DNA of 64,000 nucleotides from Deltaproteobacteria bacterium (GTDB lineage Bacteria; Myxococcota_A; Polyangia; Polyangiales; Houyiibacteriaceae), in assembly GCA_034670305.1 (NCBI GenBank), contig JAXMNT010000003.1, positions 209,764-273,763 on the forward strand, in the 5' to 3' direction. A program made the translations under genes and the position numbers. The stretch's first letter is position 1, and each line of letters begins with the position of its first letter. This document shows, one piece after another, positions 26,159 to 42,061 of this stretch. The notes under the pieces were generated by a model. It was not told where the DNA came from. It saw only the letters and a list, made by a program, of their open reading frames with translations, and ran no database searches.

Positions 26159-28624
26159 TCAGAGGCCGCCGACGTCTACTTGGTAGCTGCCGAAGGAGCT
26201 GCTGAAGTAGCCGTCGACGTGCAGGACGTAGAGGCCGACCGAGTTGACGGCCGCGCTCACGCTGGACTGCACGCTGCAGCTGTCGTCGTCGCAGGCGATC
26301 TGGCCTGAGGCGCCGTGGACGTGCAGCACCGTGTCGAAGCTCGTGCCGGTGCAGGTGGTTGCGGTGACGTTGCCGGTCACGCCCGAGCAGCGCCCGAAGT
26401 AGTAGCCGTTCTCTGGCCCGCTGCCGTTGCACGTGCTCGACAGCGTGCCGGTGCCGCTGGTGGTGCCGGTGTAGCTGCCGTTCGTCGAGATCATCGTGTA
26501 CGTGCCGTTGCCGATCGGGACCGACTGCCAGCGGAGCTGGATGGCCCCGTTGGTCGTGGCCGACGAGAAGGCGTGCACGGCGATGTAGTAGGTCCCCGGC
26601 GCGAGCACCCGCATCAACCGCTCCTGGGTCACGCCGCAGTCGTCGTCCTCGCACTGGGCCGCCGCGCCGCCACAGGAGGTGCGAAGCGAGATCGAGGTGT
26701 CGAACGTGGATCCAAAGGTGTCGACATAGAGCACCGAGCGGGTCGACAGCGTGATCCGGTACCAGAGCTCCCCGCCGTTGCGGCAGTCCGTGACCGAACG
26801 GGACGCGTTCGCGTAGGTGTCGCTCATCGTGCCGCTCGTCCCAGACAGAACGGTCGCGCCGGTGCACTGGTCGTTCGGGGCGCCACAGCCTTCGTCGACC
26901 ATGCCGTTGCCGTTGTCGTCGCAGCCGTTGCCGCACGTCTCGGTGGCCGCCGCACAGCTGTTGAACGAATCACAGCCGGCCTGGCATGTCTGGCTCCCAC
27001 TCGTGCCGCACGAGGTCGTGCAGCTCCGGATCGCGCCGAGCCGACAGGTGAACCCATCGTCCGCGGTTCCGTCGCCGTCGTCGTCGCAGCCGTTGCAGAC
27101 CTCGGTCGCGATGCACGCGCCGTAGCCGCCGCAGTCGAGTCCGCAGGTCTGCGTGCCCGAGGTGCCGCACGCGGTGGTGCACGACCGGGTGGTGCCGCGT
27201 TCACAGGCGAACCCTTCGTCTCGGAGTCCGTCGCCGTCGTCGTCGCAGCCGTTGCAGGTCTCGGTCGCGGCCACACACGCGCCAAAGCCGCTGCAGTCCG
27301 CCGCACAGCTCTGGTTGCCGCTCGTGCCGCACATCGTGGTGCAGCTGGCCGAGGTTCCGAACACACAGCCGAGGCCATCGTCGGCCACTCCGTCGCCGTC
27401 GTCGTCGCAGCCGTTGCAGGTCTCGGTCGCGGCCACACAAGGCGTGCGCGTACAGCCCGCGGTGCAGCCCTGCATGCCGCCGGTGCCGCAGCCGGTCGTA
27501 CACGCGACCGGCGCGGAGCCCACGGCGCAGACCATGCCCGGGCCGTCGTCGCTCGTGCCGCTGCAGTCGTTGTCGAGCCCGTCGCACAGCTCGGTGCCGG
27601 CCGGGTTCACGCTCGGGTTCAGGTCGTCGCAGTCGTTGCCGCCGTCGCAGCCGACCGCGGTGTAGCCGTCGCCGTCGGCGTCGCTCCCGAGGTGCTCACA
27701 CATCGCGGAGGGCTCGAGGCACCGGTCGGTGGTGCAGGAGATGCCATCGCCGCAGTCCACCGGCGTACCGGCCACACAGCCGGCGATCGCGTCGCAGGTC
27801 TCGTCGCCATCGCACACGGTCGCGTCTCGGCAGAGCGAGTCGTCGGGTCCGTGCGCGCACGCGTCCGCGCCGGCGTCGCACGAGTCCACGGTGCAGGCCA
27901 CCCCGTCGTCGCAGTCGGGCGCCGCGCCCGCGATGCAGTCCATCGTGGGGTCGCAGACTTCGTCGCCGTTGCAGAACGTGCCGTCGGCGCAGACGCTCGC
28001 ATCCGGGGTGTGTTCGCAACCGCCCGCACCCTCGGAGCACGTGTCGATCGTGCACGACACTCCGTCGTCGCAGTCGGGCGGGTCGCTCGCGGCGCAACCG
28101 TTCGCGTCCGCGGCCGGGTCGTCCGGCGCGCACACCTCGGCGCCGTTGCAAAGGATGCCGTCGTCGCAGGGTGCGTCTTCGGGTTCGTGGGTGCACTCGC
28201 CGAGTTCGGTCGAACACGCGTCCAGCGTGCAGCCGAGTCCGTCGTCGCAGGCGGGCGCTTCGCCGCGTTGGCAGCCGGTCGATGGGTCGCAGGTCTCGAC
28301 GCCGTTGCAGAAATCGCCGTCGTCGCAGGACTCGTCGGAATCACACGGCGGCCGCAGCACGCACCCCATCGCGGCGTCGCACAGCTCGGTCTCCGCACAG
28401 AGGCGGTCGTCGATGGCGTTGCTGCAACGTCCCGTGACCAGGTCGCACACGTCTTCGGTGCAATCGATGGCGTCCGCGCACTCGATGTCGGTGGTGCATC
28501 CCATGGGAGGCGCATCCACGACGGCGCCGTCCCCGCCGGTCCCGCCGTCCGCCTCCTCCATCTTGCCGGAGGCACACGCCACGAGGACACAACAAGCCAA
28601 CCCAACCCCACGAATACGCAACAT
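26159..28624 (-). CDS. Large Cys-rich lipoprotein (CDDGxxCNGxExC repeats, MopE-like CDGLDNDC motifs)
   Basis: Lipobox-like VLVAC, many Cys repeats, and two C-terminal FDTxL-type beta domains. Confidence 0.85.
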   Translation of the reverse strand: MLRIRGVGLACCVLVACASGKMEEADGGTGGDGAVVDAPPMGCTTDIECADAIDCTEDVCDLVTGRCSNAIDDRLCAETELCDAAMGCVLRPPCDSDESCDDGDFCNGVETCDPSTGCQRGEAPACDDGLGCTLDACSTELGECTHEPEDAPCDDGILCNGAEVCAPDDPAADANGCAASDPPDCDDGVSCTIDTCSEGAGGCEHTPDASVCADGTFCNGDEVCDPTMDCIAGAAPDCDDGVACTVDSCDAGADACAHGPDDSLCRDATVCDGDETCDAIAGCVAGTPVDCGDGISCTTDRCLEPSAMCEHLGSDADGDGYTAVGCDGGNDCDDLNPSVNPAGTELCDGLDNDCSGTSDDGPGMVCAVGSAPVACTTGCGTGGMQGCTAGCTRTPCVAATETCNGCDDDGDGVADDGLGCVFGTSASCTTMCGTSGNQSCAADCSGFGACVAATETCNGCDDDGDGLRDEGFACERGTTRSCTTACGTSGTQTCGLDCGGYGACIATEVCNGCDDDGDGTADDGFTCRLGAIRSCTTSCGTSGSQTCQAGCDSFNSCAAATETCGNGCDDNGNGMVDEGCGAPNDQCTGATVLSGTSGTMSDTYANASRSVTDCRNGGELWYRITLSTRSVLYVDTFGSTFDTSISLRTSCGGAAAQCEDDDCGVTQERLMRVLAPGTYYIAVHAFSSATTNGAIQLRWQSVPIGNGTYTMISTNGSYTGTTSGTGTLSSTCNGSGPENGYYFGRCSGVTGNVTATTCTGTSFDTVLHVHGASGQIACDDDSCSVQSSVSAAVNSVGLYVLHVDGYFSSSFGSYQVDVGGL

Positions 28625-28722
28625 ATCCGGCCAGGATACAATTTCCCGCGGGTTCGCGCCCCCTCCCGGCCGGTCTTTCCTTGGCCATCGGATGAGTGAG
28701 CGGCAATCGCCCGAACGCCCGT

Positions 28723-30447
28723 TCAGTCGGCGGGGCGCGGAACCGGCTGCATGGCGTCGAACCCAAAGGCCCGGATGTGGTTCACGTGCTGTCCCCGACA
28801 GGTGGTCTCGTAGCGGCAGTCCGAACAGCGCAGGCTCTTCACGAAGTAGTGCTCGTCGACGTAGCGGCGGATGTAGCGGAACGGCTCGAGGGTGCCGTCG
28901 GGCGTGGTCATCGCGGTGTCGTGGGTGGAGGGCTTCGGGCGTGGCTCCCGCCCGAGCACACAGGCAGGCACCCCTTCCACCGGCGTGTCCGCGAACGGGT
29001 GCTCGGTGAAGAACGCGACCAGATCGAGGTCGTTGCTGCGCGCTTCGGTGAGCCGCTCCCAGGTGGGCTGAAAGAGCGCCAGCCGCGCTGGCACCGTCTC
29101 GAGCCGGCGGAGCCAGTCCTCGTTGTCTCTCGAGAGCTGCAGACAGACCTCGAAGGTGCCGAACCCGAGTAGCGTCTCGGCGTCTTCGAAGCCGCGCACC
29201 CGGCAGGCGGTCAGCGTCTCGAGCGAACCCGCCTCGAGCGCCGCTTCGACCCCGCTCCAATCGTCGAGTTCGAGCACCAGCTCGGGAAGATCGAAGGGCT
29301 CGACGGCGGCGAGCGCAGCGGACAAATCGGGCGCGACCACGTGAAGCACTCGGCTGCCGCGTGCGGCGACCCCCGTGGGCGGTGCGTACTGGAGCGCGAC
29401 CATCGGCAGGCGCTTCTTGCGGCGCCCGTCACTCGCCGGGTCGCCACCGAACTGCGGCCCCATCGCGGCTTCGGCGCGCGTGTCGATGCGGATGACCTCC
29501 GGCGTGTCTTCGAGCATCGCGCGCTGGCTCTCTTCGAACGTGTCGCAGACGTTCTTCAAGTAGCAGTAGCCGCAACGGCGCGGCTCGCGGCAGTCCAGCG
29601 GCTCGCCGGTCTTGACCCAGTGCTCGAACTCCTGGCGGCGTCCGCGCACTTCGTCGTGAAGCTTGTAGGGATCCTGGATGAGCTCGTGAAACCCCTCGCA
29701 GTGCGCGACGGGGAACCGGTTGAGCCAGATGTGCATGTTGGGCTTCTTGGCCCAGCGGAACGCAGCGACCAGGTGCTCGCGGTTCTTCTCGAGGTCGTAG
29801 AAGAGGACCTCCTTGCCGTCCTTCCACGCGTTGCCGAATGGAATCACGTGGAGGAGATCGAACTCGCGCACGCCGAGGCCGACGAACTTCTCGATCATCG
29901 CGTCGAGGTGCTTCACGTTGCCGCGGTTCACGCACACATCGATGTTGATGATCGGGCGCCCGTCTTCGAGCGCGTTCATCAGGCCGGTCATCTCTTCGTC
30001 GAACGCGCCTTTCACGCCGACGAGCGCGTCGTGCACTTTCGCGTTCGGCCCGTGGATCGAGAACGTGATCTCTTGCAGACCCGCGTCGAGACACGCCTTC
30101 AGGAACTCCGGGTACTTGAACATGCGACCGTTGGTGACGGTCTGGACCTTTTCGTAGCCGGCCAGCCGGCCGAGCTTGATGAAGTCCACGTAGCGCGGAT
30201 GAATGGTGGGTTCGCCGCCCGACAGGATCAGGCGCTGGGCGCCCTTGCGCCGGCCATCGAGGATCTGCTGCTTGACCTCTTCGGGCTCGCGCATGCGTCC
30301 GTCGTGCGCGTCGGTGTCGAGGCAGAAGATGCAGTGATCGTTGCAATCAAACGTGAGGCGGACCCAGTTCCGTTTCTGGTGGGCCGCCTCTTCATGCTGT
30401 TCGACGAAGCTTCCTCCGTCCGTCAGCGCACGCTGCTCTTCGAGCAC
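28723..30447 (-). CDS. Radical SAM protein, HxsC-like, with extended C-terminus
   Basis: CNDHCIFC, SGGEPTIHP, TVTNGRMF, SIHG...HD and two Cys-rich CxxC-x5-C segments. GTG start preceded by TACAGT-N6. Confidence 0.9.
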   Translation of the reverse strand: MLEEQRALTDGGSFVEQHEEAAHQKRNWVRLTFDCNDHCIFCLDTDAHDGRMREPEEVKQQILDGRRKGAQRLILSGGEPTIHPRYVDFIKLGRLAGYEKVQTVTNGRMFKYPEFLKACLDAGLQEITFSIHGPNAKVHDALVGVKGAFDEEMTGLMNALEDGRPIINIDVCVNRGNVKHLDAMIEKFVGLGVREFDLLHVIPFGNAWKDGKEVLFYDLEKNREHLVAAFRWAKKPNMHIWLNRFPVAHCEGFHELIQDPYKLHDEVRGRRQEFEHWVKTGEPLDCREPRRCGYCYLKNVCDTFEESQRAMLEDTPEVIRIDTRAEAAMGPQFGGDPASDGRRKKRLPMVALQYAPPTGVAARGSRVLHVVAPDLSAALAAVEPFDLPELVLELDDWSGVEAALEAGSLETLTACRVRGFEDAETLLGFGTFEVCLQLSRDNEDWLRRLETVPARLALFQPTWERLTEARSNDLDLVAFFTEHPFADTPVEGVPACVLGREPRPKPSTHDTAMTTPDGTLEPFRYIRRYVDEHYFVKSLRCSDCRYETTCRGQHVNHIRAFGFDAMQPVPRPAD

Positions 30448-30524
30448 GGGCGCACTGTACTCGATCCCCGCCCAGACACCCGAGAGTTGTTGACGGCCGG
30501 TTCTGTGGATGGCCCGATCCCGCC

Positions 30525-31361
30525 ATGGGAATCGTCCCCAACCCGGATGGCCACCCGGCCCGTCCAGCGCTCTTCGCGCTCGCATTGTGCGTGTTCGGCG
30601 GCTTGGGGACGGCCCACGCCCACGCACAGCCCCAGACCCCAGGCCGGTACACCCTCCGGCCCATCACGGTGGGAGAGGGCGCGGTTCGGTTCAACGGCCA
30701 GTTCTCCGTGACCCGATTCGAAACACTCCCCGGCGAGTACGACATCCGCGTGCACAGCGCGTTGGGGGTGGCCTACGGCATCGACGACGACTTCGAGGTC
30801 GGCGCGAGTTCTCAGCCGATCATGGCCTTCGGCGGTGGCGACCTGGTGGGGGTCGAGCTCTCGCCCGATCCAGACATCTCCAACACTTACCTCTATGGCC
30901 GGTATCGGTTTCTCCACCAAGAAGCGATCGAGATGGCGGGAGAGGTCGGGATCTCGGTTCCTTGGCGCGGGGTGTTCGGGTTCGTCCTGGGTCTGCCAAT
31001 TCGGCTCCGGGGCGGCCAGTGGTTCGCCCTGGACACGGGCGCGGCATTCACAGTGCGGTTCGGGGATCCCACCACACCAGGCGCCATCTTTCCCTTCCGC
31101 CCGAGGGTGAGTGCCGGGAACTTCTACTTTGGCCTCGACACCGGCGTGTACATGGACGAACTCCGAGTCGACCACATGATCATCCCGTTGGAAGCGGAGC
31201 TCGGCGTCGCGTTCCCAAACCGCACCATCGTCTGGGACCTGTACGTTCATGGCGGATTGCCGCTGTTTCTCAGACCCAGCCGGCCCACGCCGATCGAGGA
31301 GCAAGTCTTCCTCATCTACTTCGGCTTTCGCCTCTACGTAGACACGCGAAGCACGCGCTGA
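30525..31361 (+). CDS. Exported protein, probable outer-membrane beta-barrel
   Basis: Signal peptide ending AHAHA-Q, alternating amphipathic strands, and terminal YFGFRLYV. Confidence 0.65.
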   Translation: MGIVPNPDGHPARPALFALALCVFGGLGTAHAHAQPQTPGRYTLRPITVGEGAVRFNGQFSVTRFETLPGEYDIRVHSALGVAYGIDDDFEVGASSQPIMAFGGGDLVGVELSPDPDISNTYLYGRYRFLHQEAIEMAGEVGISVPWRGVFGFVLGLPIRLRGGQWFALDTGAAFTVRFGDPTTPGAIFPFRPRVSAGNFYFGLDTGVYMDELRVDHMIIPLEAELGVAFPNRTIVWDLYVHGGLPLFLRPSRPTPIEEQVFLIYFGFRLYVDTRSTR

Positions 31362-31408
31362 CCAAGACGGGGCAGCGGCGAACCGCCTGGGGCGGTATGC
31401 TGCGCGCG

Positions 31409-33736
31409 ATGCCTACGACCCCGCCCCAACCGACGACCCGCGTGCTCGTCGTTCATCCGCCGATGTCGGTGGCGCGGGACTTCATCGACTACCCGTACGT
31501 GAGCAACCTCGGCGCCGCGCAAGTCGCCGCGGCGTTGGCTTCGAAACCCACCCTCGATGTCCAGTACGTCGATTCGTTTGCCCTGCCGGGTTCCACCTTC
31601 GCCTGGTTCGACGACACGAGTCCTGCGTTGGCCGGGCGCGCCTTCGCCGGCGCCACCAACGACGAGGTGCTCGCTCGGTGCCGGCCCGCGGACGTCGCGG
31701 TCGTGGCGCTCACGCCCTTCCATCGGCCCGGCGTGGTCGACGCCAACCTGCGCGACCTGATCGAGGGTCTCCCAGCCGACCGCGTGATCCTCGTCGACGC
31801 CTACCAGTCCGGTCAGCACCACGTCGACGCCGATACGGTCCTCACCGACTACCCGGCGGCGCACGCCTGGCTCCGGTACGAAGCCGAGCGCGATCTCGAA
31901 GCGTTGATCGTCGGCGGAGAAGCCGGCGTGCACTTCGGCGGCCGCCCGGACATCGACGCCCTGCCCTTTCCGGCGTGGGATCAGATCGACCTCGAGGCCT
32001 ACTGGCGCTTTCAGTCGCGCTTCGTGCATGGGCTCGGCCGTGGCAGCTGGGCGTTCCCCATCGGCCGCAGGACGTTGCCGATGGTCACCTCGCGTGGCTG
32101 TCCGTTCACCTGCACCCACTGCAGCAGCAACCCGGACGTCGCCTCGGGCGGCGGACCAAAGATCCAGCGCCGCCTCTCGGAAGCGCGGCTGCGTGCGCAC
32201 CTGCAGTACCTGGCGGGGCTCGGCGCCGACACCGTCTATGTGCTCGACGAACTCATCAACGTTCGGCGCGATCACTTCGACGTGTTCCTCGATGAGATCG
32301 AGAAGCTCGACCTGAAGTTCGAGGTCCCGAACGGGTTCCGCGCGGACTACCTCGAGCCGCGTCACTTCGCGCGCATGCGCGGCCGCGTGACCACCGTCAG
32401 CGTGAGCGCCGAGAGCGGCAGCCAGCGGGTGCTCGACGAGGTCGTGAAGAAGAAACTCGAGCTCTCGGCCATCACCCGCGCCGCCGCCAACGCCGAGAAG
32501 GCCGGGCTGCCGCTCCTCATCCACTACATGATCGGGCTGCCCGGCGAGACCGCGGCCGAGGTCAACGAGACCTTGGCGTTCGCGCTTCATCTCTGGGACG
32601 AACACCGCGCGTGGCCGGCCGTGCAGTTCGCGACGCCCCTGCCGGGCACCGAGATCGCGCGGCAGCTGACCGCGAGCGCCGGTTCGCTTCCAGTCGTCGA
32701 CGACTGGGGCCCGCGCTTTCAGGGCGGCCCATCGGCGAGCCCGGACACCGTGGACGCGGCCACCCTCGAGCAGTTCATGGCGACCTTCCGGCACCGGCTG
32801 CGCGAGAGCCAGGGCCCGAAGAAGCTGATCATGAACGTGACGTACGTGTGCAACAACCACTGCACGTTCTGTGCGGTCGGCACCCGCACCCAGGTCGATG
32901 GACACCCGACGCGGCAACGCGAGATCCTCGACACCTACCGCAAACACGGCATCACCCTGGTCGACTTCGACGGGGGGGAACCCACCCTCAACCCGGAGCT
33001 CATCCCGCTGATCCGCTACGCGCGCCGGATCGGATTCGAGCGCATCAACGTGACCACGAACGGCCGACTGTGCGCGTACGAGGACTTCGCGAAGAAACTC
33101 GTCGAGAGCGGCCTGACGACCTTGCTCTTCAGCGTGCACGGTCCGGACCTTCGGTCGCACGCCCGCGAGGTCGGAGTGGCGGAAGCGTTCGGCCAGACCA
33201 TGAGCGGGATCGATCACTGCGTCGCGCACAGGCCGGACAACGTCGAGCTCGGCATGAACGTCACGCTGACCAAGACCAACTACATGCGGCTCGAGGACCT
33301 GGCGCAGCTGGCGTTCGACCGCGGGCTGCCATGGCTCAACATCCAGTTCCTCACGCCGTTCGGTCGCGCAACGACCGAGGTCGCGCCGGACACCGAACAT
33401 GCGGCGGAGATCACCCGCGGCGTCATCGACCGCTGGAAAGACCGCATCAAGATCCAGGTCATCAACCTCCCCTGGTGTTTCATGCCCGGCTACGAGTCCT
33501 ACCTCGCCGGCGACGCGGCCAAACTCGCGCGGCACATGGTCTTCGTGAACAACGAGCGGGTGAACCTCGCCGAGTACCTGGCGGCGCGCCGCGTGCGGAA
33601 ACCCGTGTGCGAGACCTGTCCGCACGCGTGTTTCTGCGGAGGCTTCTACGAGCTCGAGGACGTGCCGGAGCCGGAGTGGCTCGTGTCGGCCGAGTCGCTT
33701 CTCAAACGCACCGATCCCGACGTACGTCTCCGCTGA
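31409..33736 (+). CDS. Double radical SAM fusion: cobalamin-binding (class B-like) rSAM plus HxsC-like rSAM
   Basis: Domain 1: VLVVHPP..NLGAAQVAA, TSRGCPFTCTHC, ESGSQRVL, YMIGLPGET, TPLPGT. Domain 2: CNNHCTFC, GGEPTL, TTNG, SVHG, CETC.....CGG. Confidence 0.9.
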   Translation: MPTTPPQPTTRVLVVHPPMSVARDFIDYPYVSNLGAAQVAAALASKPTLDVQYVDSFALPGSTFAWFDDTSPALAGRAFAGATNDEVLARCRPADVAVVALTPFHRPGVVDANLRDLIEGLPADRVILVDAYQSGQHHVDADTVLTDYPAAHAWLRYEAERDLEALIVGGEAGVHFGGRPDIDALPFPAWDQIDLEAYWRFQSRFVHGLGRGSWAFPIGRRTLPMVTSRGCPFTCTHCSSNPDVASGGGPKIQRRLSEARLRAHLQYLAGLGADTVYVLDELINVRRDHFDVFLDEIEKLDLKFEVPNGFRADYLEPRHFARMRGRVTTVSVSAESGSQRVLDEVVKKKLELSAITRAAANAEKAGLPLLIHYMIGLPGETAAEVNETLAFALHLWDEHRAWPAVQFATPLPGTEIARQLTASAGSLPVVDDWGPRFQGGPSASPDTVDAATLEQFMATFRHRLRESQGPKKLIMNVTYVCNNHCTFCAVGTRTQVDGHPTRQREILDTYRKHGITLVDFDGGEPTLNPELIPLIRYARRIGFERINVTTNGRLCAYEDFAKKLVESGLTTLLFSVHGPDLRSHAREVGVAEAFGQTMSGIDHCVAHRPDNVELGMNVTLTKTNYMRLEDLAQLAFDRGLPWLNIQFLTPFGRATTEVAPDTEHAAEITRGVIDRWKDRIKIQVINLPWCFMPGYESYLAGDAAKLARHMVFVNNERVNLAEYLAARRVRKPVCETCPHACFCGGFYELEDVPEPEWLVSAESLLKRTDPDVRLR

Positions 33737-33745
33737 GATGCTGAG

Positions 33746-34708
33746 ATGACCGCGTCGACACGGCCCGGAGCCGACGCCTCCGACCTCGCGTTGCTCGACG
33801 TCGTGCTCGACTACGACTGCAACCTCGGGTGCCGCTACTGCACGTTGACCGCCGAGATGCGTCGGCGCGGGCTCCGGACCGACACGGTGCGGCGGGCGAT
33901 GCGGGCCGCCCGGCGCGATGGGTTTCAGGCCATCTCCTTCACCGGGGGCGAGCCCACCATCCGCCCCGATCTGCTGCCCCTGATCCGCGAAGCGCGCGCG
34001 CTCGGATACACATCGATCAAAGTGCAGACGAACGGACTGGTGTTCGCGGAACGGAAGAACCTCGAGCGGCTGCTCGCCGCGGGCACCACCGAGATCCACC
34101 TCTCGATCCACACCCACCTCGCCGAGGCCTACGACGATCTGGTCCGGCGCGAGGGTGCCTACGAGCGGATGAAGCAGGCCGCGGCCAACCTCGCGGGCGT
34201 GTCGGATCGGGCGACGGTGTTCTCGGATCTGGTCGTGCTCCGCAGCACGCTGCCAGTGCTCGCCGACGCGGTGGACTGGTGCGCGGACCTCGGCTTCACC
34301 GCCGGACACCTCTGGTACTACTCGGCGACCGACGAACAGGCCGGGCGGACCGACCAGATGCCGAGCTTCGAAGAGGCGATGCCGTCGATCCTCGCAGCGC
34401 TGGAACGGGCGGAGGACCGCGGCTTCGATCTTCGGTCGCTGCACATCCCCCATTGCCTGCTGGGTCGCTTCGCCGACCAGGGCACGGACCCCACCGCGCG
34501 CACGGTTCGGGTCGCCACACCGGACGCGGTGTTCGACCTCGCCGACAGTCCGCTCACCCCCAACGCGCGCATCCCCGCGTGCGTCGACTGTCCCCGCGCG
34601 ACACGCTGCCGCGGCGTGCGGCGCGACTACCTCGCACAGTACGGCGACGCGGAGATGGCCCACGCGCGCGGCCAAGCGCGTACCCTCTTGCCGGTGGTGC
34701 CCGGCTGA
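33746..34708 (+). CDS. Radical SAM protein, HxsC-like
   Basis: CNLGCRYC, FTGGEPT, QTNG, SIH, IPHC and CVDC.....CRG...YL..YG..E. Confidence 0.9.
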   Translation: MTASTRPGADASDLALLDVVLDYDCNLGCRYCTLTAEMRRRGLRTDTVRRAMRAARRDGFQAISFTGGEPTIRPDLLPLIREARALGYTSIKVQTNGLVFAERKNLERLLAAGTTEIHLSIHTHLAEAYDDLVRREGAYERMKQAAANLAGVSDRATVFSDLVVLRSTLPVLADAVDWCADLGFTAGHLWYYSATDEQAGRTDQMPSFEEAMPSILAALERAEDRGFDLRSLHIPHCLLGRFADQGTDPTARTVRVATPDAVFDLADSPLTPNARIPACVDCPRATRCRGVRRDYLAQYGDAEMAHARGQARTLLPVVPG

Positions 34709-34756
34709 GCCGCCTCGTCCGCCACCAGGACCCCAACCCCAGAGGAGATCTGATCC

Positions 34757-34933
34757 ATGCCCAAGTGTCAGGGATGCGGCGAAGACGTCGAGGAGCTCGA
34801 AGCCCGCAAAGTGGCCGGCAAACGCAAGAAGCTGTGTGAAGACTGCGTGGAGCTGGCCGAAGAACAGGCGGAGATCGCCGAGATGAGCGAAAACGCGATG
34901 CGGGACATGATGGAGTACAAGGGCAAGTACTGA
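34757..34933 (+). CDS. 58-aa Zn-ribbon-like small protein (absent from the ORF track)
   Basis: MPKCQGCGEDVEELEARKVAGKRKKLCEDCVELAEEQAEIAEMSENAMRDMMEYKGKY; AGGAG RBS upstream; host-like codon usage. Confidence 0.8.
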   Translation: MPKCQGCGEDVEELEARKVAGKRKKLCEDCVELAEEQAEIAEMSENAMRDMMEYKGKY

Positions 34934-34993
34934 CGCGGGCGCATCTCCGCGTCCCCTCTTGGGGGGTGTGTCCGGGTAGGTTATCCTGTGCGC

Positions 34994-36580
34994 GTGAGCG
35001 ACCCATTCCTCAGCACGCGGTCGCCCCTCGGTCCAGCCTGGACCCTCTGCGCGGTGATGCTGGCCGTGCTGGTGCCCACCACTGGATGCGCCAAGGGATC
35101 CGGGACCGGGTTCGACGTGAGCGTCGACCTCCGGACCGATCTGGTGCCGGGCGTCGAGTTCACCGCGGTGCAGGTCCGGCTGGAAGGCGAGACCACCACC
35201 CTCGAACCGGCGCACCCCGAACGCGACTACCTCGAAGGGGTCCGCGTCGCCGAGTTCGAGGGCGTCTCCGGCGGCGCGATCGAGCTGATCGTCGACGTCT
35301 CGAACGGATCCGGCGTGGTGGTGTCGCGGCGCGTCGCGGTGACCGTGCAGAACGACACCGCCGTGACCGTCGTCATCACCCGGGACTGCCGGGGCGTCGA
35401 GTGCCCGGGCGACGGCAGCACGAGCAACACCGCGTGCCTGGGCGGCGAGTGTGTGGATCCCTCGTGCACGCCCGAGACGCCCGAGTTGTGCCCGACCGCG
35501 GATTGCACCGTCGCCGCCGACTGCGACGCGCCGATGCAGGCGTGTTTGGAAGCGAACTGCATCGTCGGCCGATGTCTCTACGCGGACCGCGGCAGCTGCG
35601 GCGACGGCCGGTACTGCGACGAGCGCTCCGGCTGCGTGGACGTCGGCGTCGACGCCGGACCGATCGACGGCGGCGGCATGGATGCTGGAACCGACGCGGG
35701 TCCGTGCGGTTCGATCATGTGCGAGGGGTTCTCCATCTGCGATCCCTTCATCGGCGGGTGCGTGAGTCTGCGCGGCTGCATCGGGCCCGACGAGTGCGAC
35801 AGCGGCGACATCTGCCGGAACTCGTACTGCGTGCCGGAGGACTACGACGTCGATGGCGACGGAGTGCCCGCCTCCGAAGACTGCGACGAACGAGACGCCG
35901 CCATTTCGCCCGACGCGACCGAGGTGTGCAACCTCGTCGACGACGACTGCGACATGATGGCGGACGAAGGCAACATCGGCGATCTGTGCGCGAGCGCGCC
36001 GGGCGGCGGCGAGTGCATGGACGGTGTGTGCGGCTGTCCTCCAGACCGGTTCGACGTCGATGGCGTGTCGAGCACCGGTTGCGAGTGCATGGCGTCGCCC
36101 GTCTCGACCGCCGGTCTGACGTGCGCGGAAGCGATCGACCTCGGCTCGGTCTCCGACGTCGGCGAAATGACCATGGCGATGGCGAACGTCTTACCGGCCG
36201 ACCGCGAAGTGTGGTTCCGCATCCTCGCGACCGACGCCGCGGACACCGCCTGCGACAACTTCCACGCCCGCATCCAGTTCCTCGAGAACCCGGACGACCG
36301 CTTCGAGTTCACGGTCTTCCGCGGCGGGTGCGGCGCCGCGACCTGTGCGGACATGGGCTACACGGACTTCAGCTGGGCCACCGACTTCCGCGCGACCATC
36401 GACGCGACTGAGACGGGGCAGTGTCCGTGCCTGTCGACCGCACGCGCACCCGACGGGGTGGCGACGTGTTCGGACGACTCGTCGGTGCTGCTGGTGCGGG
36501 TGCGCCGCCGGGCGGCGGGTCCGATGCCAAGCTGCGACGGTTTCGTCCTGGAGCTGAGCAACGGGGTCTACGACACCTGA
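34994..36580 (+). CDS. Cys-rich lipoprotein with MopE-like motif
   Basis: Hydrophobic signal ending TTGC, DVDGDG...DCDE......P.A.EVCN.VDDDCD, and many Cys. GTG preceded by TATCCT-N6. Confidence 0.8.
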   Translation: MSDPFLSTRSPLGPAWTLCAVMLAVLVPTTGCAKGSGTGFDVSVDLRTDLVPGVEFTAVQVRLEGETTTLEPAHPERDYLEGVRVAEFEGVSGGAIELIVDVSNGSGVVVSRRVAVTVQNDTAVTVVITRDCRGVECPGDGSTSNTACLGGECVDPSCTPETPELCPTADCTVAADCDAPMQACLEANCIVGRCLYADRGSCGDGRYCDERSGCVDVGVDAGPIDGGGMDAGTDAGPCGSIMCEGFSICDPFIGGCVSLRGCIGPDECDSGDICRNSYCVPEDYDVDGDGVPASEDCDERDAAISPDATEVCNLVDDDCDMMADEGNIGDLCASAPGGGECMDGVCGCPPDRFDVDGVSSTGCECMASPVSTAGLTCAEAIDLGSVSDVGEMTMAMANVLPADREVWFRILATDAADTACDNFHARIQFLENPDDRFEFTVFRGGCGAATCADMGYTDFSWATDFRATIDATETGQCPCLSTARAPDGVATCSDDSSVLLVRVRRRAAGPMPSCDGFVLELSNGVYDT

Positions 36581-36594
36581 CCTTGGTGCGCGCC

Positions 36595-37200
36595 ATGATC
36601 GTCACTCTGCATGCCAGCCGAGCCGCGCCCCACAACTGGGTCGCCGGAGCGGACACCTTCGACGCCGCCTGGGCCGAGATCCACGCAGCGAAGCGGTGCA
36701 CCGCGTCCGTGCGGGGTTCGGCGGACGTTGCCCCGGCGACACGCGTCCTCACCCTGGTCGAACGTTCGAACATGCGGGAGTTGCTCGCCCTCGCCGAACA
36801 GCTTCCGGCCGGCGCCGAGTGGTGCCTGCAGCTTCGGAGGGACGGCACCCGCAGCCCGCGGCTCGCGATGGCCGCGCCTCGGATCTTGCGGGCGGCCACC
36901 GCGGCTCAGAAGCGCGGTCTGCGGGTCGCCGTGCGCGCCGTGCCGCTCTGCCTGCTCGGGCCCTACACCGACCTGGCGCTGCCGGCGGTCCCCGTCGAAG
37001 CCGGGGGTCCCTGTGCCGAATGCCGCGCGCGTCTGCAGTGTGCCGCGCCCCATCCCGCGTATCTGACCCGGTTCGGGCCGTCCGAAGTCAGGGCCCGCGG
37101 GCCGGTCGAACTCGACGTCGCGCAACTCGAGCGCTTCGCTTGGGTGTTCGAGGACATGAACCCAGGGCCGGACAGTGCTATCTTGGGTCGCGATGGGTGA
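36595..37200 (+). CDS. Radical-SAM-like paralogue lacking the N-terminal CxxxCxxC region
   Basis: TLHASRAAPHN..AG..TFD resembles SIHG...HD. It also has SNMREL, VPLCLL and CAEC.....C......YL.RFG.SE, as in the neighbouring rSAM C-termini. Confidence 0.6.
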   Translation: MIVTLHASRAAPHNWVAGADTFDAAWAEIHAAKRCTASVRGSADVAPATRVLTLVERSNMRELLALAEQLPAGAEWCLQLRRDGTRSPRLAMAAPRILRAATAAQKRGLRVAVRAVPLCLLGPYTDLALPAVPVEAGGPCAECRARLQCAAPHPAYLTRFGPSEVRARGPVELDVAQLERFAWVFEDMNPGPDSAILGRDG

Positions 37201-37477
37201 CCACGACGATTGGGGCGACGACTTCGAAGAGGAGCTGCCTGCGTTCGCCAAGGACGCAGAAGGCGCACTCAACGGAGAACAACGCGATGTCTCGCGGCGC
37301 GCACTCGAGACCGCGGACGACGCGGTCGCCGGCGCGGACCAGCACGGCGCACAGCACTGCAGCCACGGCAGCCACGGCTCCCATGGCTCTCACGGCAGCC
37401 ATGGTTCTCACGGAAGTCATGGAAGCCACGGCTCGCACGGAAGCCACGGCAGCCACGGCAGCCACGGTTCCTGGTAG
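37193..37477 (+). CDS. His-Xaa-Ser repeat peptide, putative RiPP precursor (94 aa, acidic leader plus HC(SHG)12SW)
   Basis: 12 SHG units at 37361-37468 encoded by mixed synonymous codons. Lies 3 nt upstream of an rSAM gene, with TGcTATCTT 8 nt before the ATG. Confidence 0.88.
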   Translation: MGDHDDWGDDFEEELPAFAKDAEGALNGEQRDVSRRALETADDAVAGADQHGAQHCSHGSHGSHGSHGSHGSHGSHGSHGSHGSHGSHGSHGSW

Positions 37478-37480
37478 CGC

Positions 37481-38554
37481 TTGGACCCCCGCGTACGATT
37501 GCCGTTGCTCGATGGCCCAGAGCTCGATGCTGGGGTGCTGGACGTCGTCGGCCGGATCTCCGAGAAGCGCGAACGGGTCCACATCCTCACCGGCGCGGTC
37601 TGCAACAACAACTGCATCTTCTGCATGGAAGAGGATCGGGACGGACGAAAGGTCCTGAACTCGCAGACGGACGACGCGATGGTCGCCCGCATCCTGAAAG
37701 AGAACACCGAGGCTGGGTCGATCTGCGAAGAGATCTGTTTCACCTCCGGCGAACCGACCACGAACCGGCGGCTCATCGCCTGGGTGAAGATGGCCAAAGC
37801 GGCGGGCGTCGAGCGCATCAGCGTGATGACCAACGGCCGGGCGCTGTCGTACGACAAGTTCACGCGCGGACTCGTCGCCGCGGGCATGAACCGCTTCTAC
37901 GTGAGCATTCACGGCCACACCCAGAAACTTCACGAGTCCCTCGTGCGCACGCCGGGCGCCTTCGATCAAACGGTCGCGGGCATTCGCGAGGTGGCCAAGC
38001 TGCGACGCTACGGGGTCGAGTTGCACACCAGCACCGTGCTGACGAAGCGCAACCTTCCGCACCTGCAGGACATCTACGACTTTCTCCGTGGGCTCGGCGT
38101 GGGTCAGGTGGTCTTCAACGTGATGCAGGCCAACGGCCGCGCGGACACCCACTTCGAGCGCATCTTCCCGCGGTACTCGGACATCGCCGCGCAGGCGGCC
38201 GAGTTCGTGACGGCTGCCCAGGCCGCGTCCGGCGACGCCGAGGTGCCCGCGTTCTTCATCGACATCCCACTGTGCACCACCACCGAGCTGCCGGACTTCA
38301 ACCGCGGCTACGTCGAGTCCTACAAACACTACGAACCCGACGACGGCGGCGACGGCGGCCACGACCAGCGGCTCTCGGTCCTCGACCGAGTGCAGGGCGA
38401 TCTGGTCGAAGTGCGCCGGAGCGATCTGGACGACGACCTCAGAGAGAAGCGCGACGCGTGCAGCCGCTGCAAGTACGACAAGGCCTGTGAAGGCGTCTGG
38501 GTGAACTACCTGCGCCGCTTCGGCTGGGACGAGATGGTCCCGGTCATCGACTGA
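37481..38554 (+). CDS. Radical SAM protein, HxsC-like, probable peptide maturase
   Basis: CNNNCIFC, FTSGEPT, MTNG, SIHG....HE, IPLC and CSRC.....CEG...YL.RFG.DE. TTG start. Confidence 0.9.
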   Translation: MDPRVRLPLLDGPELDAGVLDVVGRISEKRERVHILTGAVCNNNCIFCMEEDRDGRKVLNSQTDDAMVARILKENTEAGSICEEICFTSGEPTTNRRLIAWVKMAKAAGVERISVMTNGRALSYDKFTRGLVAAGMNRFYVSIHGHTQKLHESLVRTPGAFDQTVAGIREVAKLRRYGVELHTSTVLTKRNLPHLQDIYDFLRGLGVGQVVFNVMQANGRADTHFERIFPRYSDIAAQAAEFVTAAQAASGDAEVPAFFIDIPLCTTTELPDFNRGYVESYKHYEPDDGGDGGHDQRLSVLDRVQGDLVEVRRSDLDDDLREKRDACSRCKYDKACEGVWVNYLRRFGWDEMVPVID

Positions 38555-38679
38555 ACCACGGCAGGTGCAGCACAGGCCTGCACGACCGCCCTGGCTCGAT
38601 CCGAGAGCCTGAACCCACAACTTTCACTGCTCAGCACGGTTGCGATGGAATCGTCGCTCGTGGTGCACTTCGGGGACAG

Positions 38680-39789
38680 ATGGCGCGGATCATCGAGATG
38701 CTCTGGGACTGTTCGTCCTGCGGCACCCGCAACCGCGGGCGGGACATGCGTTGCACGATGTGCGGCTCTCCGAAGGAGGACGACGAGCGCTACGTGATGC
38801 CGGGCGACACGTCGGCGGCCCCGAGCGTGACGGACCCGAAACGACTCGCCGAAGCGCGGGCCGGACGCAACTGGCAATGCCCGTACTGCGACGGTTCGGT
38901 CCGCAACCTCCACGGCGAGTGTTCCGTGTGCGGCGGACCGAGGACCGACCGCGCGGCGGCCGGGGAGCCGACCATCGACCTGAAGGGTGCCGCGGGCCGG
39001 CGCGCGGACAACCCGGACTTCGACAGCGAGGGCAAGGTCGTTTACCCGAGCGAACTCGACCAAGCGATCCGCCGGTTTCGGAGGGGGCGTTGGTTCGGCG
39101 TGAGCATCGTGCTGAGCATCCTGGCGGTTGTGGGCCTGTTCCTGCTCTGGTGGTTCCTGCCCCACGAGGTCGAGGTCGAGGTCGCGAGCATCGGCTGGGA
39201 ACGCACGGTCGAACTCCAGCGGCGCCAGACCAACTCGGGGAGCGACTGGCGCGACCAGATGGCGGGCGGCGCATTCAACGTGTCGTGCTCGACTCGGCAG
39301 CGCGGTACCGAGAACTGCCACCCCTACACCTGCAACTGCCATCAGGTGACCGACTACTGCTCCGAGTCCTGCAACTGCCATGAGGTGTGCACGGACAACG
39401 GCAATGGCTACGCGAGCTGCAGCACCGAGTGTTCGAGCTGTCAGCACGAGTGCGGCAGCCACGAAGAGTGCGACACCTGCTACGAACAGTGCCCTGTGTA
39501 CGCGGACTGGTGTTCCTACCAGTACTACACCTGGCCCACGCTCGACCGCGAGACGACGCGGGGCAACGACCACGCGCCCTACTACAGCGACCGCCTCTTG
39601 GCCGACCCGGCCGTGAACGAGCGGCTCGTGTACGCGCAGCAGTTCGACGTGCAGTTCGAGGAGGACGACGACGTGTGGAACCACCGCCCCGATACCCTCG
39701 AGGAGTTCCTGCGTTACGACCTACACGAGACATGGCTCATCGAGGTGAACCACGCGGGCCAGGTCTGGCCACAGCACGCGGTGGAGTGA
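38680..39789 (+). CDS. Membrane protein with two N-terminal Zn fingers and a Cys-rich external domain
   Basis: WDCSSC...CTMCG and WQCPYC...CSVCG, one TM helix, then a Cys-dense segment. Confidence 0.8.
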   Translation: MARIIEMLWDCSSCGTRNRGRDMRCTMCGSPKEDDERYVMPGDTSAAPSVTDPKRLAEARAGRNWQCPYCDGSVRNLHGECSVCGGPRTDRAAAGEPTIDLKGAAGRRADNPDFDSEGKVVYPSELDQAIRRFRRGRWFGVSIVLSILAVVGLFLLWWFLPHEVEVEVASIGWERTVELQRRQTNSGSDWRDQMAGGAFNVSCSTRQRGTENCHPYTCNCHQVTDYCSESCNCHEVCTDNGNGYASCSTECSSCQHECGSHEECDTCYEQCPVYADWCSYQYYTWPTLDRETTRGNDHAPYYSDRLLADPAVNERLVYAQQFDVQFEEDDDVWNHRPDTLEEFLRYDLHETWLIEVNHAGQVWPQHAVE

Positions 39790-39823
39790 CCCAGCGCGCA
39801 CGCGGTCCAGCGCCGCCGACGCA

Positions 39824-42061
39824 TCAGGTCACGAGCAGGCGGGTGAGGCGCTCGCTGAACGTCAGCATCGCCTCGACCTCCGGTCGCGTGGCCAGTCGCA
39901 TGAACTTGAAGACGACCAGATCGGAACCGTTGCACTCCAAGTGGTAGACCTCTTCCTCCTCCAGGAAGGCCAGTACGTCGTCGGTCAGAAACTCGCGCAC
40001 CTTCTCGCTGCTCTCGCCCTTCACGACGAACCGGCGGGAGAAGTCCGTGTAGTGTTCGAAGTCCGCGTCGCGAAACCCCGCCACTTGGAGCACGCGGTCG
40101 AGCAACTCTTCCTTCTCGACGATGAGCTCTGGAAGCTCCATCGGCAGATGCAAGACCTGCGCGGTCGTGTGGTAGACCTCGGGGGTCCCCACCCCTTCGT
40201 CGAAGGTCACGTCGCAGAGCGAGAACTCCACCCGCGGGTGCTCTGCGCCACCGAGTTCGTACACCCCGCGAACGACCGTGTCGCGGTACTCGACCGGGTG
40301 AAGCCGGAAGAACCGGAAGTCGCCGAGGTCGTCGGGATCCCACACGCGCCGCGCGTCGAACTCCCACTTCCGTTCGGCCGCGAGCTTCTCGATCTTCTTC
40401 TGCCGCGGGGTCAGGCGACGGGTGCGCAGCGGCCCTTCGATGACGTGCAGCGCGTCCGGGTGATCTGAGATCGCACGGTGGGCTTCGAGACCCAGCACGT
40501 CGAAGCGGCCACCCTCGTTCTCGCGTTCGTAGCGGCGCCCGAACTCGTGCGTGAACTCGAGGAGCGTGTGGTCCACCAGAAGCGACTGCGTGAAGTCGAC
40601 GATGACGTTCTGCACGCCGCTCACCGGTTGAAGCGCTTTCTGGAGCCGGGGGATCATCAGGTAGTTCGCGACGCCTCGAACCCGCAGCAGATACGGCTTG
40701 CCCTCTTCGTGCACGGTCTCGACGGAGGTCTGCCAAAGGCGCATCAGGGACTCGCGCGCGGGCAGGTTGAGAATGATCAGGTGGCTGACCAGTTCCGAGA
40801 CGAGCCCGATGAAGATGCCCCACAGCAGGCCCCAGACCAGCGTGGCCGCCAGGGTCACGCCGAAGATCAAGAAGTGGTCCGGCCCCTTGTTGAGCGTCTC
40901 GCGCACCACGTGCGGGCCGGCGAGTTTGTAGCCGGTGTAGATCAGGATCGCGGCCAACGCCGAGAGCGGGATCAGCTGCATCACCGGCGAGATCAGAAGC
41001 ACGCAGAGGCTGAGCAACAGACCCTGAAAAAAGTTCGACCAGCCGGTCTTGGCGCCGTGGTTCAGGTTGACCGAGCTGCGCGCGATGACGGTGAGCACCG
41101 GCAACCCGCCGAGCATGCCGGACGCGATGGTGGAGACGCCCATGCCGACCAGGTCGCGGTTCATCGAAGACTCGCGCCGGTACGGGTCGAGTCGGTCGAC
41201 GGCCTTCACGCTGACGATGTTCTCGATCGAGTTCACCAAGGTGAACGTCATGACCACCATCCAGAAGCCGGCCTCTCCGATCCGCGAGAAGTCCGGCCGC
41301 ACCAAGCTGCCGATCAAGTCCGCCGGGATGCTCACGCGCAGATTCTCCGCAACGCTGAGCCCCTCGAAGAACTCGACCCGTGGGCCCAGCTGCTGCACGC
41401 CGACGATCACCCCGATCGCCAGGGACACCACCCAAAGCGGTGCCGGGATGAACCGGACGAACTTCTTCTTGGTCTTGGGGTGCAGGATCAGGATCGCGAG
41501 ACTGAGCACGCCGAGGATGCTCACGAACGGATCGAGCGTGGCGATCGTCGCAGGCAGCTCCTGGAACACGCCGATGGGGTTGCTGGCGGTCGCCTTCTGT
41601 CCGAGCAGCACGTGGAGTTGCTTGCCCACGATGATGAGCCCGATCGCCGCGAGCATGCCCTGGATGACAGCGCTCGGAATCACGTCGCCGACGCGGCCGA
41701 GACGGAGCACCCCGAAGAGCACCTGGACCGCGCCCGCCACCACGATGGCACCGAGCACATGCGGGAACGCTTCGGCCCCCCCGCCAAACGCCAGGAAGGC
41801 GGAGGCGACGATGACGATCAGGCTGTTGCCGGGTCCGTTGATCGCGACGTGGGTTCCGCGGACGAAGGTCCCGATGAAACCCGCGACGGCCACCGATACG
41901 AGGCCGGAGATCGGGGGCGCACCGGCCGCCATCGCGATGCCGAGCGCCAGCGGCAGCGCCACGAGCGCCACGCTCAGACCGGCGATCGCATCGTTGCGCC
42001 AGTGGTCTCGGAGCCCGCGCAGATTGGTTCGCGGAACCTCCGACGCGTCGATGCTCATCAT
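39824..42061 (-). CDS. SulP/SLC26-family anion transporter with STAS-like and extra C-terminal domains
   Basis: DAIAGLSVALVALPLALGIAMAAGAP, GGLPVLTVIARSSVN and IPLSALAAILIYTGYKL. Confidence 0.92.
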   Translation of the reverse strand: MMSIDASEVPRTNLRGLRDHWRNDAIAGLSVALVALPLALGIAMAAGAPPISGLVSVAVAGFIGTFVRGTHVAINGPGNSLIVIVASAFLAFGGGAEAFPHVLGAIVVAGAVQVLFGVLRLGRVGDVIPSAVIQGMLAAIGLIIVGKQLHVLLGQKATASNPIGVFQELPATIATLDPFVSILGVLSLAILILHPKTKKKFVRFIPAPLWVVSLAIGVIVGVQQLGPRVEFFEGLSVAENLRVSIPADLIGSLVRPDFSRIGEAGFWMVVMTFTLVNSIENIVSVKAVDRLDPYRRESSMNRDLVGMGVSTIASGMLGGLPVLTVIARSSVNLNHGAKTGWSNFFQGLLLSLCVLLISPVMQLIPLSALAAILIYTGYKLAGPHVVRETLNKGPDHFLIFGVTLAATLVWGLLWGIFIGLVSELVSHLIILNLPARESLMRLWQTSVETVHEEGKPYLLRVRGVANYLMIPRLQKALQPVSGVQNVIVDFTQSLLVDHTLLEFTHEFGRRYERENEGGRFDVLGLEAHRAISDHPDALHVIEGPLRTRRLTPRQKKIEKLAAERKWEFDARRVWDPDDLGDFRFFRLHPVEYRDTVVRGVYELGGAEHPRVEFSLCDVTFDEGVGTPEVYHTTAQVLHLPMELPELIVEKEELLDRVLQVAGFRDADFEHYTDFSRRFVVKGESSEKVREFLTDDVLAFLEEEEVYHLECNGSDLVVFKFMRLATRPEVEAMLTFSERLTRLLVT

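Follow-up and report, generated by a model that had tools for sequence, protein, structure and literature searches.

The 64,000-nucleotide (nt) stretch of DNA analysed here (the window; contig JAXMNT010000003.1 of the Deltaproteobacteria bacterium assembly GCA_034670305.1, 67.8% G+C) encodes a short peptide ending in His-Xaa-Ser (HxS) repeats and, directly downstream of it, a radical S-adenosylmethionine (rSAM) enzyme. The peptide's open reading frame (ORF) is a real gene and a member of the HxsA4 family, and peptide and enzyme together are the catalogued NCBIfam pair HxsA4/HxsC4 rather than a new family. The (SHG)n-SW sequence of the peptide is strictly conserved across the phylum. On balance, we regard HxsA4 and HxsC4 as the A-C part of a Myxococcota-type His-Xaa-Ser (Hxs) maturation system, and the evidence set out below tilts towards a single multi-enzyme His-x-Ser maturation system that acts on these strictly conserved peptides. 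The literature library searched yielded no paper naming HxsA4 or HxsC4 and none linking HxS repeats with myxobacteria.

The HxsA4 precursor

The original prediction described a 94-residue ORF with an acidic leader, a C-terminus reading DQHGAQHC(SHG)12SW and 13 H-x-S motifs. Re-reading of the sequence confirms this: the ORF opens with an ATG, begins MGDHDD, contains 12 SHG units and closes with a TAG stop at 37475-37477 (Table 1). The leader holds 16 Asp/Glu residues against 4 Lys/Arg and nowhere runs for more than five residues without a D, E, K, R, H, N or Q, so that nothing in it resembles a signal peptide. The match to the HxsA4 model NF038313 (curated cut-off 55 bits) covers profile positions 1-93 with an E value of 3.7e-26, and the same model gave 91 bits in a genome-wide search. 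Pfam returned a sub-threshold collagen-like low-complexity match only.

A scan of one genome per species identified 225 relatives of HxsC4, the best 80 of which (59-74% identity, all carrying myxobacterial or older deltaproteobacterial names) were analysed as loci. An HxS-repeat ORF, taken as one with at least four consecutive H-x-S units, is present in 67 of the 80 loci, nearly always just 5' of HxsC4. None was seen in the other 13, one of which has just 142 nt of upstream sequence. These loci yielded 60 clean precursor homologues, in every one of which the (SHG)n array is uninterrupted, with n between 4 and 20. The array is preceded by (Q/T/G)H(C/A/G) and followed by SW in 59 cases and RW in one, and the leaders share the conserved motif LPxF...QRxxSxRA..NAD. 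At the DNA level, distinct nine-base units make up a mean of 44% of each array; the window's own array has eight distinct units among its 12 and draws on five Ser, two His and three Gly codons. That the arrays are unbroken in 60 of 60 homologues, though n varies so widely, indicates that the protein sequence of the repeat is maintained even as its length drifts, in keeping with what had been proposed from the codon usage alone.

Two of the related loci depart from this arrangement. In one (L068:9569-10993), precursor and HxsC4 form a single open frame of 474 residues with no stop after SW, whilst in the other (L026:9695-11044) the two are merged by a frame change; the merging may be a natural fusion or may stem from misassembly of the repeat. 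The repeat also falls at N runs or contig ends in several metagenome assemblies (L027:7643-8449, L049:9410-9934, L135), and repeat numbers taken from such assemblies may therefore be unreliable.

The source genome (7.93 Mb in 105 contigs, 96% complete) encodes a second peptide of this type, 99 residues long and ending (SHG)15-SW, on contig C2 (L118:3292-4392). It has a different leader (IPSF...), scores 75.9 bits on the HxsA4 model and adjoins an HxsD-like protein (NF038315, 48.1 bits against a cut-off of 41), with no rSAM gene adjacent.

The HxsC4 enzyme

HxsC4 starts at a TTG codon 3 nt past the precursor stop, the spacing given in the original prediction, and matches NF038332 (cut-off 500 bits) over profile positions 4-335 and Pfam PF04055 at 69.2 bits. 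Comparison with hidden Markov models thus bears out the proposal of an Hxs-type precursor beside an HxsC-like rSAM enzyme, placing both proteins over their curated cut-offs. Seven cysteines are invariant in 44 aligned HxsC4 sequences: C41, C45 and C48 of the CxxxCxxC motif and C265, C327, C330 and C336 near the C-terminus. An AlphaFold2 (AF2) model of the enzyme has a predicted local distance difference test (pLDDT) score of 85.1, and its nearest solved folds are BlsE (7vob, E = 7.6e-12), MoaA, DesII, GDGT-MAS, viperin and SkfB (1tv7 and 6efn among them). BlsE is also the best solved relative by sequence. Judged against these folds, the four C-terminal cysteines would fit a twitch-like second cluster.

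The additional radical SAM genes

As originally stated, there are five CxxxCxxC motifs within 10 kb, spread over four ORFs, one of which holds two; all were located (Table 1). The signature CxxC-x5-CxG is found in all four HxsC-like domains, and TNG and S(I/V)H can be read in the translations. The claim that the domains also have GGEPT in common applies to three of the four, HxsC4 having SGEPT in its place. The three proteins other than HxsC4 (a long enzyme, a fusion of two rSAM domains and rSAM320) each match the HxsC4 model best, at 71-103 bits against the cut-off of 500, and are not therefore HxsC4 members. A quick tree of 111 rSAM domains places them in clades of their own: HxsC4 (19 rows, support 99), the long enzyme (13, 100), the C-terminal domain of the fusion (10, 99), rSAM320 (9, 93) and HxsB (14, 99), together with several other paralogue clades.

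The long enzyme was listed as an ORF at 28723-30627, but its likeliest start is the GTG at 30447 since the G+C content at third codon positions (GC3) falls to 0.63 upstream and relatives align from about residue 54. It scores 103.3 bits on HxsC4 and 86.5 bits on HxsC, both below cut-off, and in a BLASTP comparison its residues 95-253 and 486-629 align with HxsC4, the C-terminal region of HxsC4 being repeated after the core. For the fused gene, GC3 and alignments of relatives point to a start at ATG 31397 or 31409, not 30509. Pfam finds Radical_SAM twice in the protein. The first half reaches no NCBIfam cut-off (Sden_1168 79.6 bits, cut-off 575; AprD4 58.2; PhpK 55.0), the second half matches HxsC4, again under cut-off, and the matches in the PDB are AprD4 (6fd2, the best) and viperin-like enzymes. 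AprD4 is not known to be a methylase. The best NCBIfam match of rSAM320, HxsC4, stands at 71.1 bits.

The fusion, rSAM320, the 58-residue protein, the Cys-rich lipoprotein, the remnant, HxsA4 and HxsC4 follow one another on the plus strand with gaps of 9, 48, 54, 11, -8 and 3 nt, and the long enzyme is transcribed divergently from this run. The negative gap reflects an 8 nt overlap of the stop of the remnant gene with the start of HxsA4. Matches to the remnant in tblastn searches fall in the C-terminal parts of full-length, GGEPT-bearing paralogues. It retains the TRS, PRL, PxCxLGP and CxxC-x5-C motifs, and H14, R58, W77, P118, C120, C141, C144 and C150 are invariant in an alignment of 18 sequences. 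Its GC3 is 0.83 and its AF2 model has a pLDDT of 83.5; the preceding gene ends 11 nt before it, leaving no space for the missing N-terminus. A Foldseek search with the model gave no match at E ≤ 0.001, and it is thus from sequence comparison that the remnant appears homologous to the C-terminal parts of rSAM enzymes. Against the long enzyme, BLASTP aligned only the CxxC...FG motif (E = 0.011), and a complex prediction for residues 1-175 of the remnant with residues 1-66 of HxsA4 scored 0.00, returned as 'no answer'.

HxsB and HxsD

The HxsB and HxsD genes of the source genome lie together on contig C55, outside the window. HxsB scores 519 bits on TIGR03978 (cut-off 370), whilst HxsD, at 51.5-52.8 bits on TIGR03976 (cut-off 50), is marginal. 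There is no precursor and no HxsC at this locus, where the contig ends 2.5 kb beyond HxsD. Across the whole source genome no protein matches TIGR03979 (HxsA) at E ≤ 0.01 and none exceeds the 267.9-bit cut-off of TIGR03977 (HxsC), the best being HxsC4 (93.6-97.5 bits) and the long enzyme (86.5-89.2 bits). On C55 (L117:2612-6327), the next gene after HxsD and HxsB, on their strand, is phospholipase-D/cardiolipin-synthase-like (TIGR04265, 245 bits, under its cut-off of 290).

When the genome's own HxsB and HxsD were used as tblastn queries, HxsB was found in 43 and HxsD in 39 of the 80 related loci. In 33 loci HxsB and HxsC4 share a strand and less than 1 kb separates the end of HxsB from the HxsC4 gene downstream of it, giving the order HxsD-HxsB-HxsA4-HxsC4. 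Of the 69 loci whose upstream sequence extends to 3 kb or more, 30 resemble the window in having no HxsB. Three loci (L075, L086, L092) have the precursor with HxsD-HxsB, 5-7 kb from HxsC4. Six loci from the family f18 carry the long enzyme, a small rSAM gene (in five of the six, not L121), HxsD and HxsB in that order, and L125, L126 and L127 each have an (SHG)n peptide with a terminal SW or QW immediately 3' of HxsB. The genes of L126 form one minus-strand run of a remnant-like gene, the long enzyme, the small rSAM gene, HxsD, HxsB and the (SHG)n precursor, so that the long enzyme and the remnant-like gene appear to share an operon with an (SHG)n precursor.

Different HxS proteins are encoded at two other myxobacterial HxsB loci. 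At L129:5500-5787 the protein has HVSHASHASHASHVSHQS and a signal peptide, and at L130:7788-8528 a larger protein begins with HRSHSSHRSHSSHYS; several precursor types thus coexist in the phylum.

Distribution and linkage

An evenly drawn sample of 301 Myxococcota genomes was searched five times, once for each enzyme family, and the overlaps between families were computed from hand-transcribed genome lists (that of rSAM320 with HxsB was checked by eye). HxsB was found in 112 genomes (110 over cut-off), the long enzyme in 104, the fusion in 60, HxsC4-like proteins in 41 (18 over cut-off) and rSAM320 in 29. The families are nested. HxsB and the long enzyme share 102 genomes, with two having the long enzyme only and ten HxsB only. 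All 60 genomes with the fusion also encode HxsB, and 58 of them the long enzyme; HxsB likewise accompanies HxsC4-like proteins in 41 of 41 genomes and rSAM320 in 29 of 29. The 18 genomes with HxsC4 over cut-off all encode HxsB, the long enzyme and the fusion. Among 101 genomes holding both HxsB and the long enzyme, the two are at most 10 kb apart in 31 and at most 20 kb apart in 41.

Linkage to HxsC4 was examined in the 80 loci, 44 of which have at least 8 kb on both sides of the gene (full flanks). Within 10 kb of HxsC4, rSAM320 occurs in 24 loci, the fusion in 20 and the long enzyme in 16; 34 loci have at least one of the three (23 of the 44 with full flanks) and 11 have them all, with order and orientation varying from locus to locus.

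Smaller genes and surroundings

Orthologues of the Cys-rich putative lipoprotein are found in 11 of the 80 loci, always adjoining the remnant gene and the 58-residue protein gene. A second large Cys-rich putative lipoprotein with a PF11617 MopE-type motif, at 26159-28591 on the minus strand, flanks the rSAM cluster. The 58-residue protein is present in eight of the 80 loci (60-74% identity), always next to the Cys-rich lipoprotein gene, and the eight orthologues end in DMMGYKG(R/S/K) followed by W in seven and R in one. With zinc-ribbon matches that are weak at best, it could be either a second small substrate or a zinc-ribbon partner. It was considered as an equivalent of HxsD and rejected, there being no TIGR03976 match and its occurrence being confined to the closest relatives.

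The ORFs at the two ends of the plus-strand run are not counted as parts of the system. The first (278 residues) belongs to no Pfam family and gave no tblastn match in 102 loci, and the last (369 residues) had no tblastn match in the 80 related loci. Two antisense ORFs (36568-37272 and 37178-38620) are spurious, as the sense frames have homologues and higher GC3. The earlier remark that the locus lacks a protease or peptide exporter is upheld over a wider region, no such family being found among the ORFs of approximately 15-51 kb of the window. A scan of 28000-40500 for promoters and terminators gave nothing above shuffled controls. For 33700-38600, a look-up of sequencing runs listed seven DNA runs, four of which are possible sources, and no RNA run.

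Table 1. Genes of the HxsA4/HxsC4 region, with positions counted from the first nucleotide of the window
Feature	Coordinates	Strand	Description
HxsA4-family precursor, 94 aa (amino acids)	37193..37477	+	55-aa acidic leader, then C(SHG)12SW; NF038313 91.8 bits
HxsC4 radical SAM enzyme, 357 aa	37481..38554	+	NF038332 567.9 bits; CNNNCIFC
Long HxsC-like rSAM ('rSAM634'), ~574 aa	28723..30447	-	CNDHCIFC; second, cluster-less C-terminal half
Fused double rSAM	31397..33736	+	N-terminal class-B-like domain (CPFTCTHC), C-terminal HxsC-like domain (CNNHCTFC)
HxsC-like rSAM 'rSAM320', 320 aa	33746..34708	+	CNLGCRYC, GGEPT, CxxC-x5-CxG
Cluster-less rSAM remnant (putative), ~202 aa	36592..37200	+	resembles the last two thirds of an HxsC-like enzyme; lacks CxxxCxxC and GGEPT
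Cys-rich putative lipoprotein, 530 aa	34988..36580	+	MopE-type metal-binding motif, PF11617 at 3.7e-8
58-aa protein	34757..34933	+	CxxC...CxxC, acidic helix, conserved C-terminus (DMMEYKGKY here)
278-aa ORF	30525..31361	+	first gene of the plus-strand run; signal-peptide-like start; GC3 0.82; membership doubtful
369-aa ORF	38680-39789	strand run of HxsC4	125 nt downstream of HxsC4; N-terminal RanBP-type zinc finger, hydrophobic segment, Cys-rich C-terminal part

One pathway or several

The mechanism that we propose is modelled on the +8 Da modification of Escherichia coli HxsA. The acidic leader would dock the HxsA4 peptide, and enzymes of the HxsB/HxsC type, using a 5'-deoxyadenosyl radical, would then modify each H-G-S unit in turn. 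The rSAM paralogues may add further modification steps, with the long enzyme, the fusion and its partner rSAM320, and the remnant serving as accessory parts of the same pathway. The expected product would be a multiply modified, His-rich peptide, for which envelope defence, as in E. coli, and metal binding are candidate roles.

The original prediction saw here an expanded variant with many more maturases than the usual two. Part of this stands: the plus-strand run is tight (eight or nine genes with gaps of 3-125 nt), orthologues of the three extra rSAM genes lie near HxsC4 in 34 of the 80 loci, and the enzyme families nest with HxsB. The usual pair has not been replaced, however, as HxsB and HxsD are present on C55 and precede HxsA4 in 33 related loci, and the extra families are often unlinked. 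The nesting itself is suggestive and carries no statistical test, since related genomes are not independent and the pattern may partly reflect shared descent.

A number of further observations weigh against a single pathway. No leader-recognition domain was seen in HxsC4 in either sequence or structure comparisons, and its closest solved relatives are mostly small-molecule enzymes (BlsE, MoaA, DesII, viperin). The methylation suggested at the outset loses its footing: the cut-offs of the class-B methylase families are not reached, and Pfam detected no B12-binding domain, residues 1-234 of the fusion matching no family at E ≤ 5 and PF02310 being missing from the matches of the whole protein. 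In 21 of the 44 full-flank loci, the 10 kb on either side of HxsC4 contain none of the three extra rSAM genes, and these 21 include every locus from a cultured Nannocystis strain among the 80 (L079, L080, L082, L083, L090). The extra families are also three to six times commoner than HxsC4, from which they are often unlinked, so that a dedicated action on HxsA4 can be put forward by inference only.

The same difficulty arises from loci in which the enzymes and the peptide part company. Twelve fusion loci from genomes without HxsC4 (that is, with no match to its model at E ≤ 1e-60 in the phylum-sample search) have no HxS ORF within about 9 kb of the fusion, and in ten of these there is no other window-like rSAM gene either. 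Ten further loci (L107-L116; families f26, f33, f50 and f51) have four or five adjacent HxsC-like rSAM genes, comprising an HxsC4-like gene (38-43% identity), a second (30-34%), a long-enzyme-like gene (in some loci split between two hits) and, in most, one more; a search of all ten for a precursor turned up neither a His-repeat ORF nor, upstream, any conserved small ORF. Conversely, HxsA4-type peptides were found in all five f18 genomes without HxsC4 that were tested, at unlinked sites with no rSAM gene within 1.5 kb (three over cut-off and two cut by contig ends or N runs). HxsC4 is thus not obligatory for the peptide, which tracks the HxsB set rather than HxsC4, and the extra enzymes also occur beyond HxsC4 loci.

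These observations could also be explained by two or more separate systems lying side by side, in which only HxsC4 modifies HxsA4, HxsB and HxsD act in trans, and the long enzyme, the fusion and rSAM320 serve some other substrate (the 58-residue protein, the Cys-rich lipoprotein, a small molecule or a lipid), their proximity arising from the clustering of rSAM paralogues. The full-flank loci in which HxsA4 and HxsC4 occur without extra rSAM genes would fit such an arrangement, as would the kinship of HxsC4 in structure to small-molecule enzymes. The fusion stands alone in f18 loci, it forms a tight pair of its own with rSAM320 (no more than 1 kb apart in 20 of 29 genomes, counted by eye), and the genes for the 58-residue protein, the Cys-rich protein and the remnant move as one block. 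We nevertheless think separate systems the less likely account, given that the fusion (60/60), the long enzyme (102/104) and HxsC4-like proteins (41/41) are nested within HxsB-bearing genomes, that the run in L126 joins the long enzyme and a remnant-like gene to HxsD, HxsB and an (SHG)n precursor, and that the remnant stop overlaps the HxsA4 start in the window.

A different question is what the product does. It would be an antiphage barrier if, as with E. coli HXS, the matured (SHG)n peptide were exported and hindered the entry of phage DNA. The curated models that recognise HxsB and HxsD of the E. coli system are also passed by the HxsB and HxsD found here, and in E. coli, according to PMC13128918, defence requires HxsB, HxsC, HxsD and intact HxS repeats; moreover, signal- or transmembrane-like N-termini are seen in the (SHG)n precursors that follow HxsB in L125 and L127. 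The HxsA4 of the window has an acidic leader with no hydrophobic segment, a core without Lys or Arg and no peptidoglycan-binding domain. HxsB is near-universal in some families (23/23 in f18, 13/14 in f26) and so looks inherited rather than island-like, the neighbours in the window are ordinary chromosomal genes (a kinase, GntR-aminotransferase, SulP and HrpB), and PADLOC (2023) gave generic viperin cross-matches only. An antiphage role consequently seems improbable to us. Least probable by far is that HxsA4 is no enzyme substrate but a plain His-rich peptide for metal binding or storage that lies beside Fe-S enzymes by chance. Its twelve core histidines are set at fixed spacing and MopE-type metal-motif proteins flank the cluster, but this would leave without explanation the conserved leader motif, the invariant HC...SW frame around the repeats, the constant adjacency to HxsB and/or HxsC4 and the fused precursor-HxsC4 frame in L068, and the homologous E. 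coli system does modify its HxS protein (PMC13128918).

Returning to a single multi-enzyme system, we tentatively suggest a broader form of it: the Myxococcota may possess a largely inherited, multi-locus His-x-Ser pathway with up to six rSAM domains (HxsB, the long enzyme, the class-B-like::HxsC-like fusion, rSAM320 and HxsC4) plus a cluster-less remnant, which would modify the (SHG)n-Ser-Trp peptide repeat by repeat. Its product would be a new kind of peptide and the pathway possibly an older, non-defence relative of E. coli HXS.

The chemistry is directly testable. Twelve identical H-G-S units would multiply any mass shift twelve-fold, the HxsA4 peptide is small, acidic and probably soluble, and close relatives of it exist in the cultured Nannocystis strains. 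Which candidate enzymes to test, and in what order, is indicated by the nesting of the partner families.

Comparison with known systems

Maturases of triceptides (XyeB, GrrM/OscB, AmcB, HaaB and HtkB) resemble the present system in acting through an rSAM enzyme on a peptide with a leader and a repeated short motif containing an aromatic residue, here His; HtkB is reported to form a link from His-C2 to Lys-Cβ (PMC11499958). HxsC4 scores 45.7 bits on the AmcB model (cut-off 425) and 40.5 on GrrM/OscB (cut-off 310), and the models for XyeB and YhhB are not among its best 25 NCBIfam matches. Unlike these maturases it has no SPASM or leader-recognition domain, and its four-Cys C-terminal motif is shorter. 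The triceptide-type chemistry raised in the original prediction accordingly finds no backing in these scores. The twitch-type enzymes BlsE, MoaA and SkfB share with the HxsC4 model a partial TIM barrel and, after it, a short C-terminal part that bears cysteines, but are just 14-21% identical to HxsC4 in sequence, and BlsE and MoaA act on small molecules.

The closest match is with the HxsA4/HxsC4 pair of NCBIfam itself. Both window proteins exceed the cut-offs and the precursor lies directly 5' of the enzyme, as in most loci, although the adjacent HxsD-HxsB of 33 of the 80 relatives is missing here. The HxsC4 model is labelled 'rare', yet 225 relatives were found, and 18 of 301 Myxococcota genomes encode a protein over its cut-off.

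The one system of this kind studied by experiment is E. coli HXS, described in PMC13128918. HXS is an antiphage barrier acting in the periplasm, in which HxsB, HxsC and HxsD mature HxsA, a protein with a peptidoglycan-binding domain; the canonical gene order is HxsD-HxsB-HxsC-HxsA. HxsA is N-terminally processed and carries +8 Da on SHRSS. The chemistry of His-x-Ser modification is still unsolved, as this sole experimental study places the shift on one motif and could not reconstitute it in vitro. In the same survey, 99.7% of HXS systems, judged by HxsA, belong to the Pseudomonadota. That HxsB exceeds its cut-off in 110 of 301 Myxococcota genomes points to Hxs-type systems being far more widespread outside the Pseudomonadota than the HxsA-based survey (PMC13128918) suggested.

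Compared with E. coli HXS as there described, the myxobacterial genes likewise form a small set around two or more rSAM enzymes, with HxsB and HxsD homologues that pass the same curated models, an HxsC-like rSAM enzyme and a protein with tandem H-x-S motifs. The precursor of the window differs in having no match to TIGR03979, in its length of 94 residues, in its 13 HxS motifs against five and in its acidic leader; it lacks a peptidoglycan-binding domain, and its repeats contain no basic residues. The HxsC cut-off is reached by neither HxsC4 nor the long enzyme, and there are up to three further rSAM proteins. The gene order in relatives is D-B-A-C rather than D-B-C-A, and in the present genome the genes are split over contigs. 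With HxsB, HxsD and an HxsC-like enzyme in common but a different precursor, gene order, enzyme set and neighbours, the system is best assigned to HxsA4/HxsC4, as a variant within the Hxs type that is distinct from canonical HXS.

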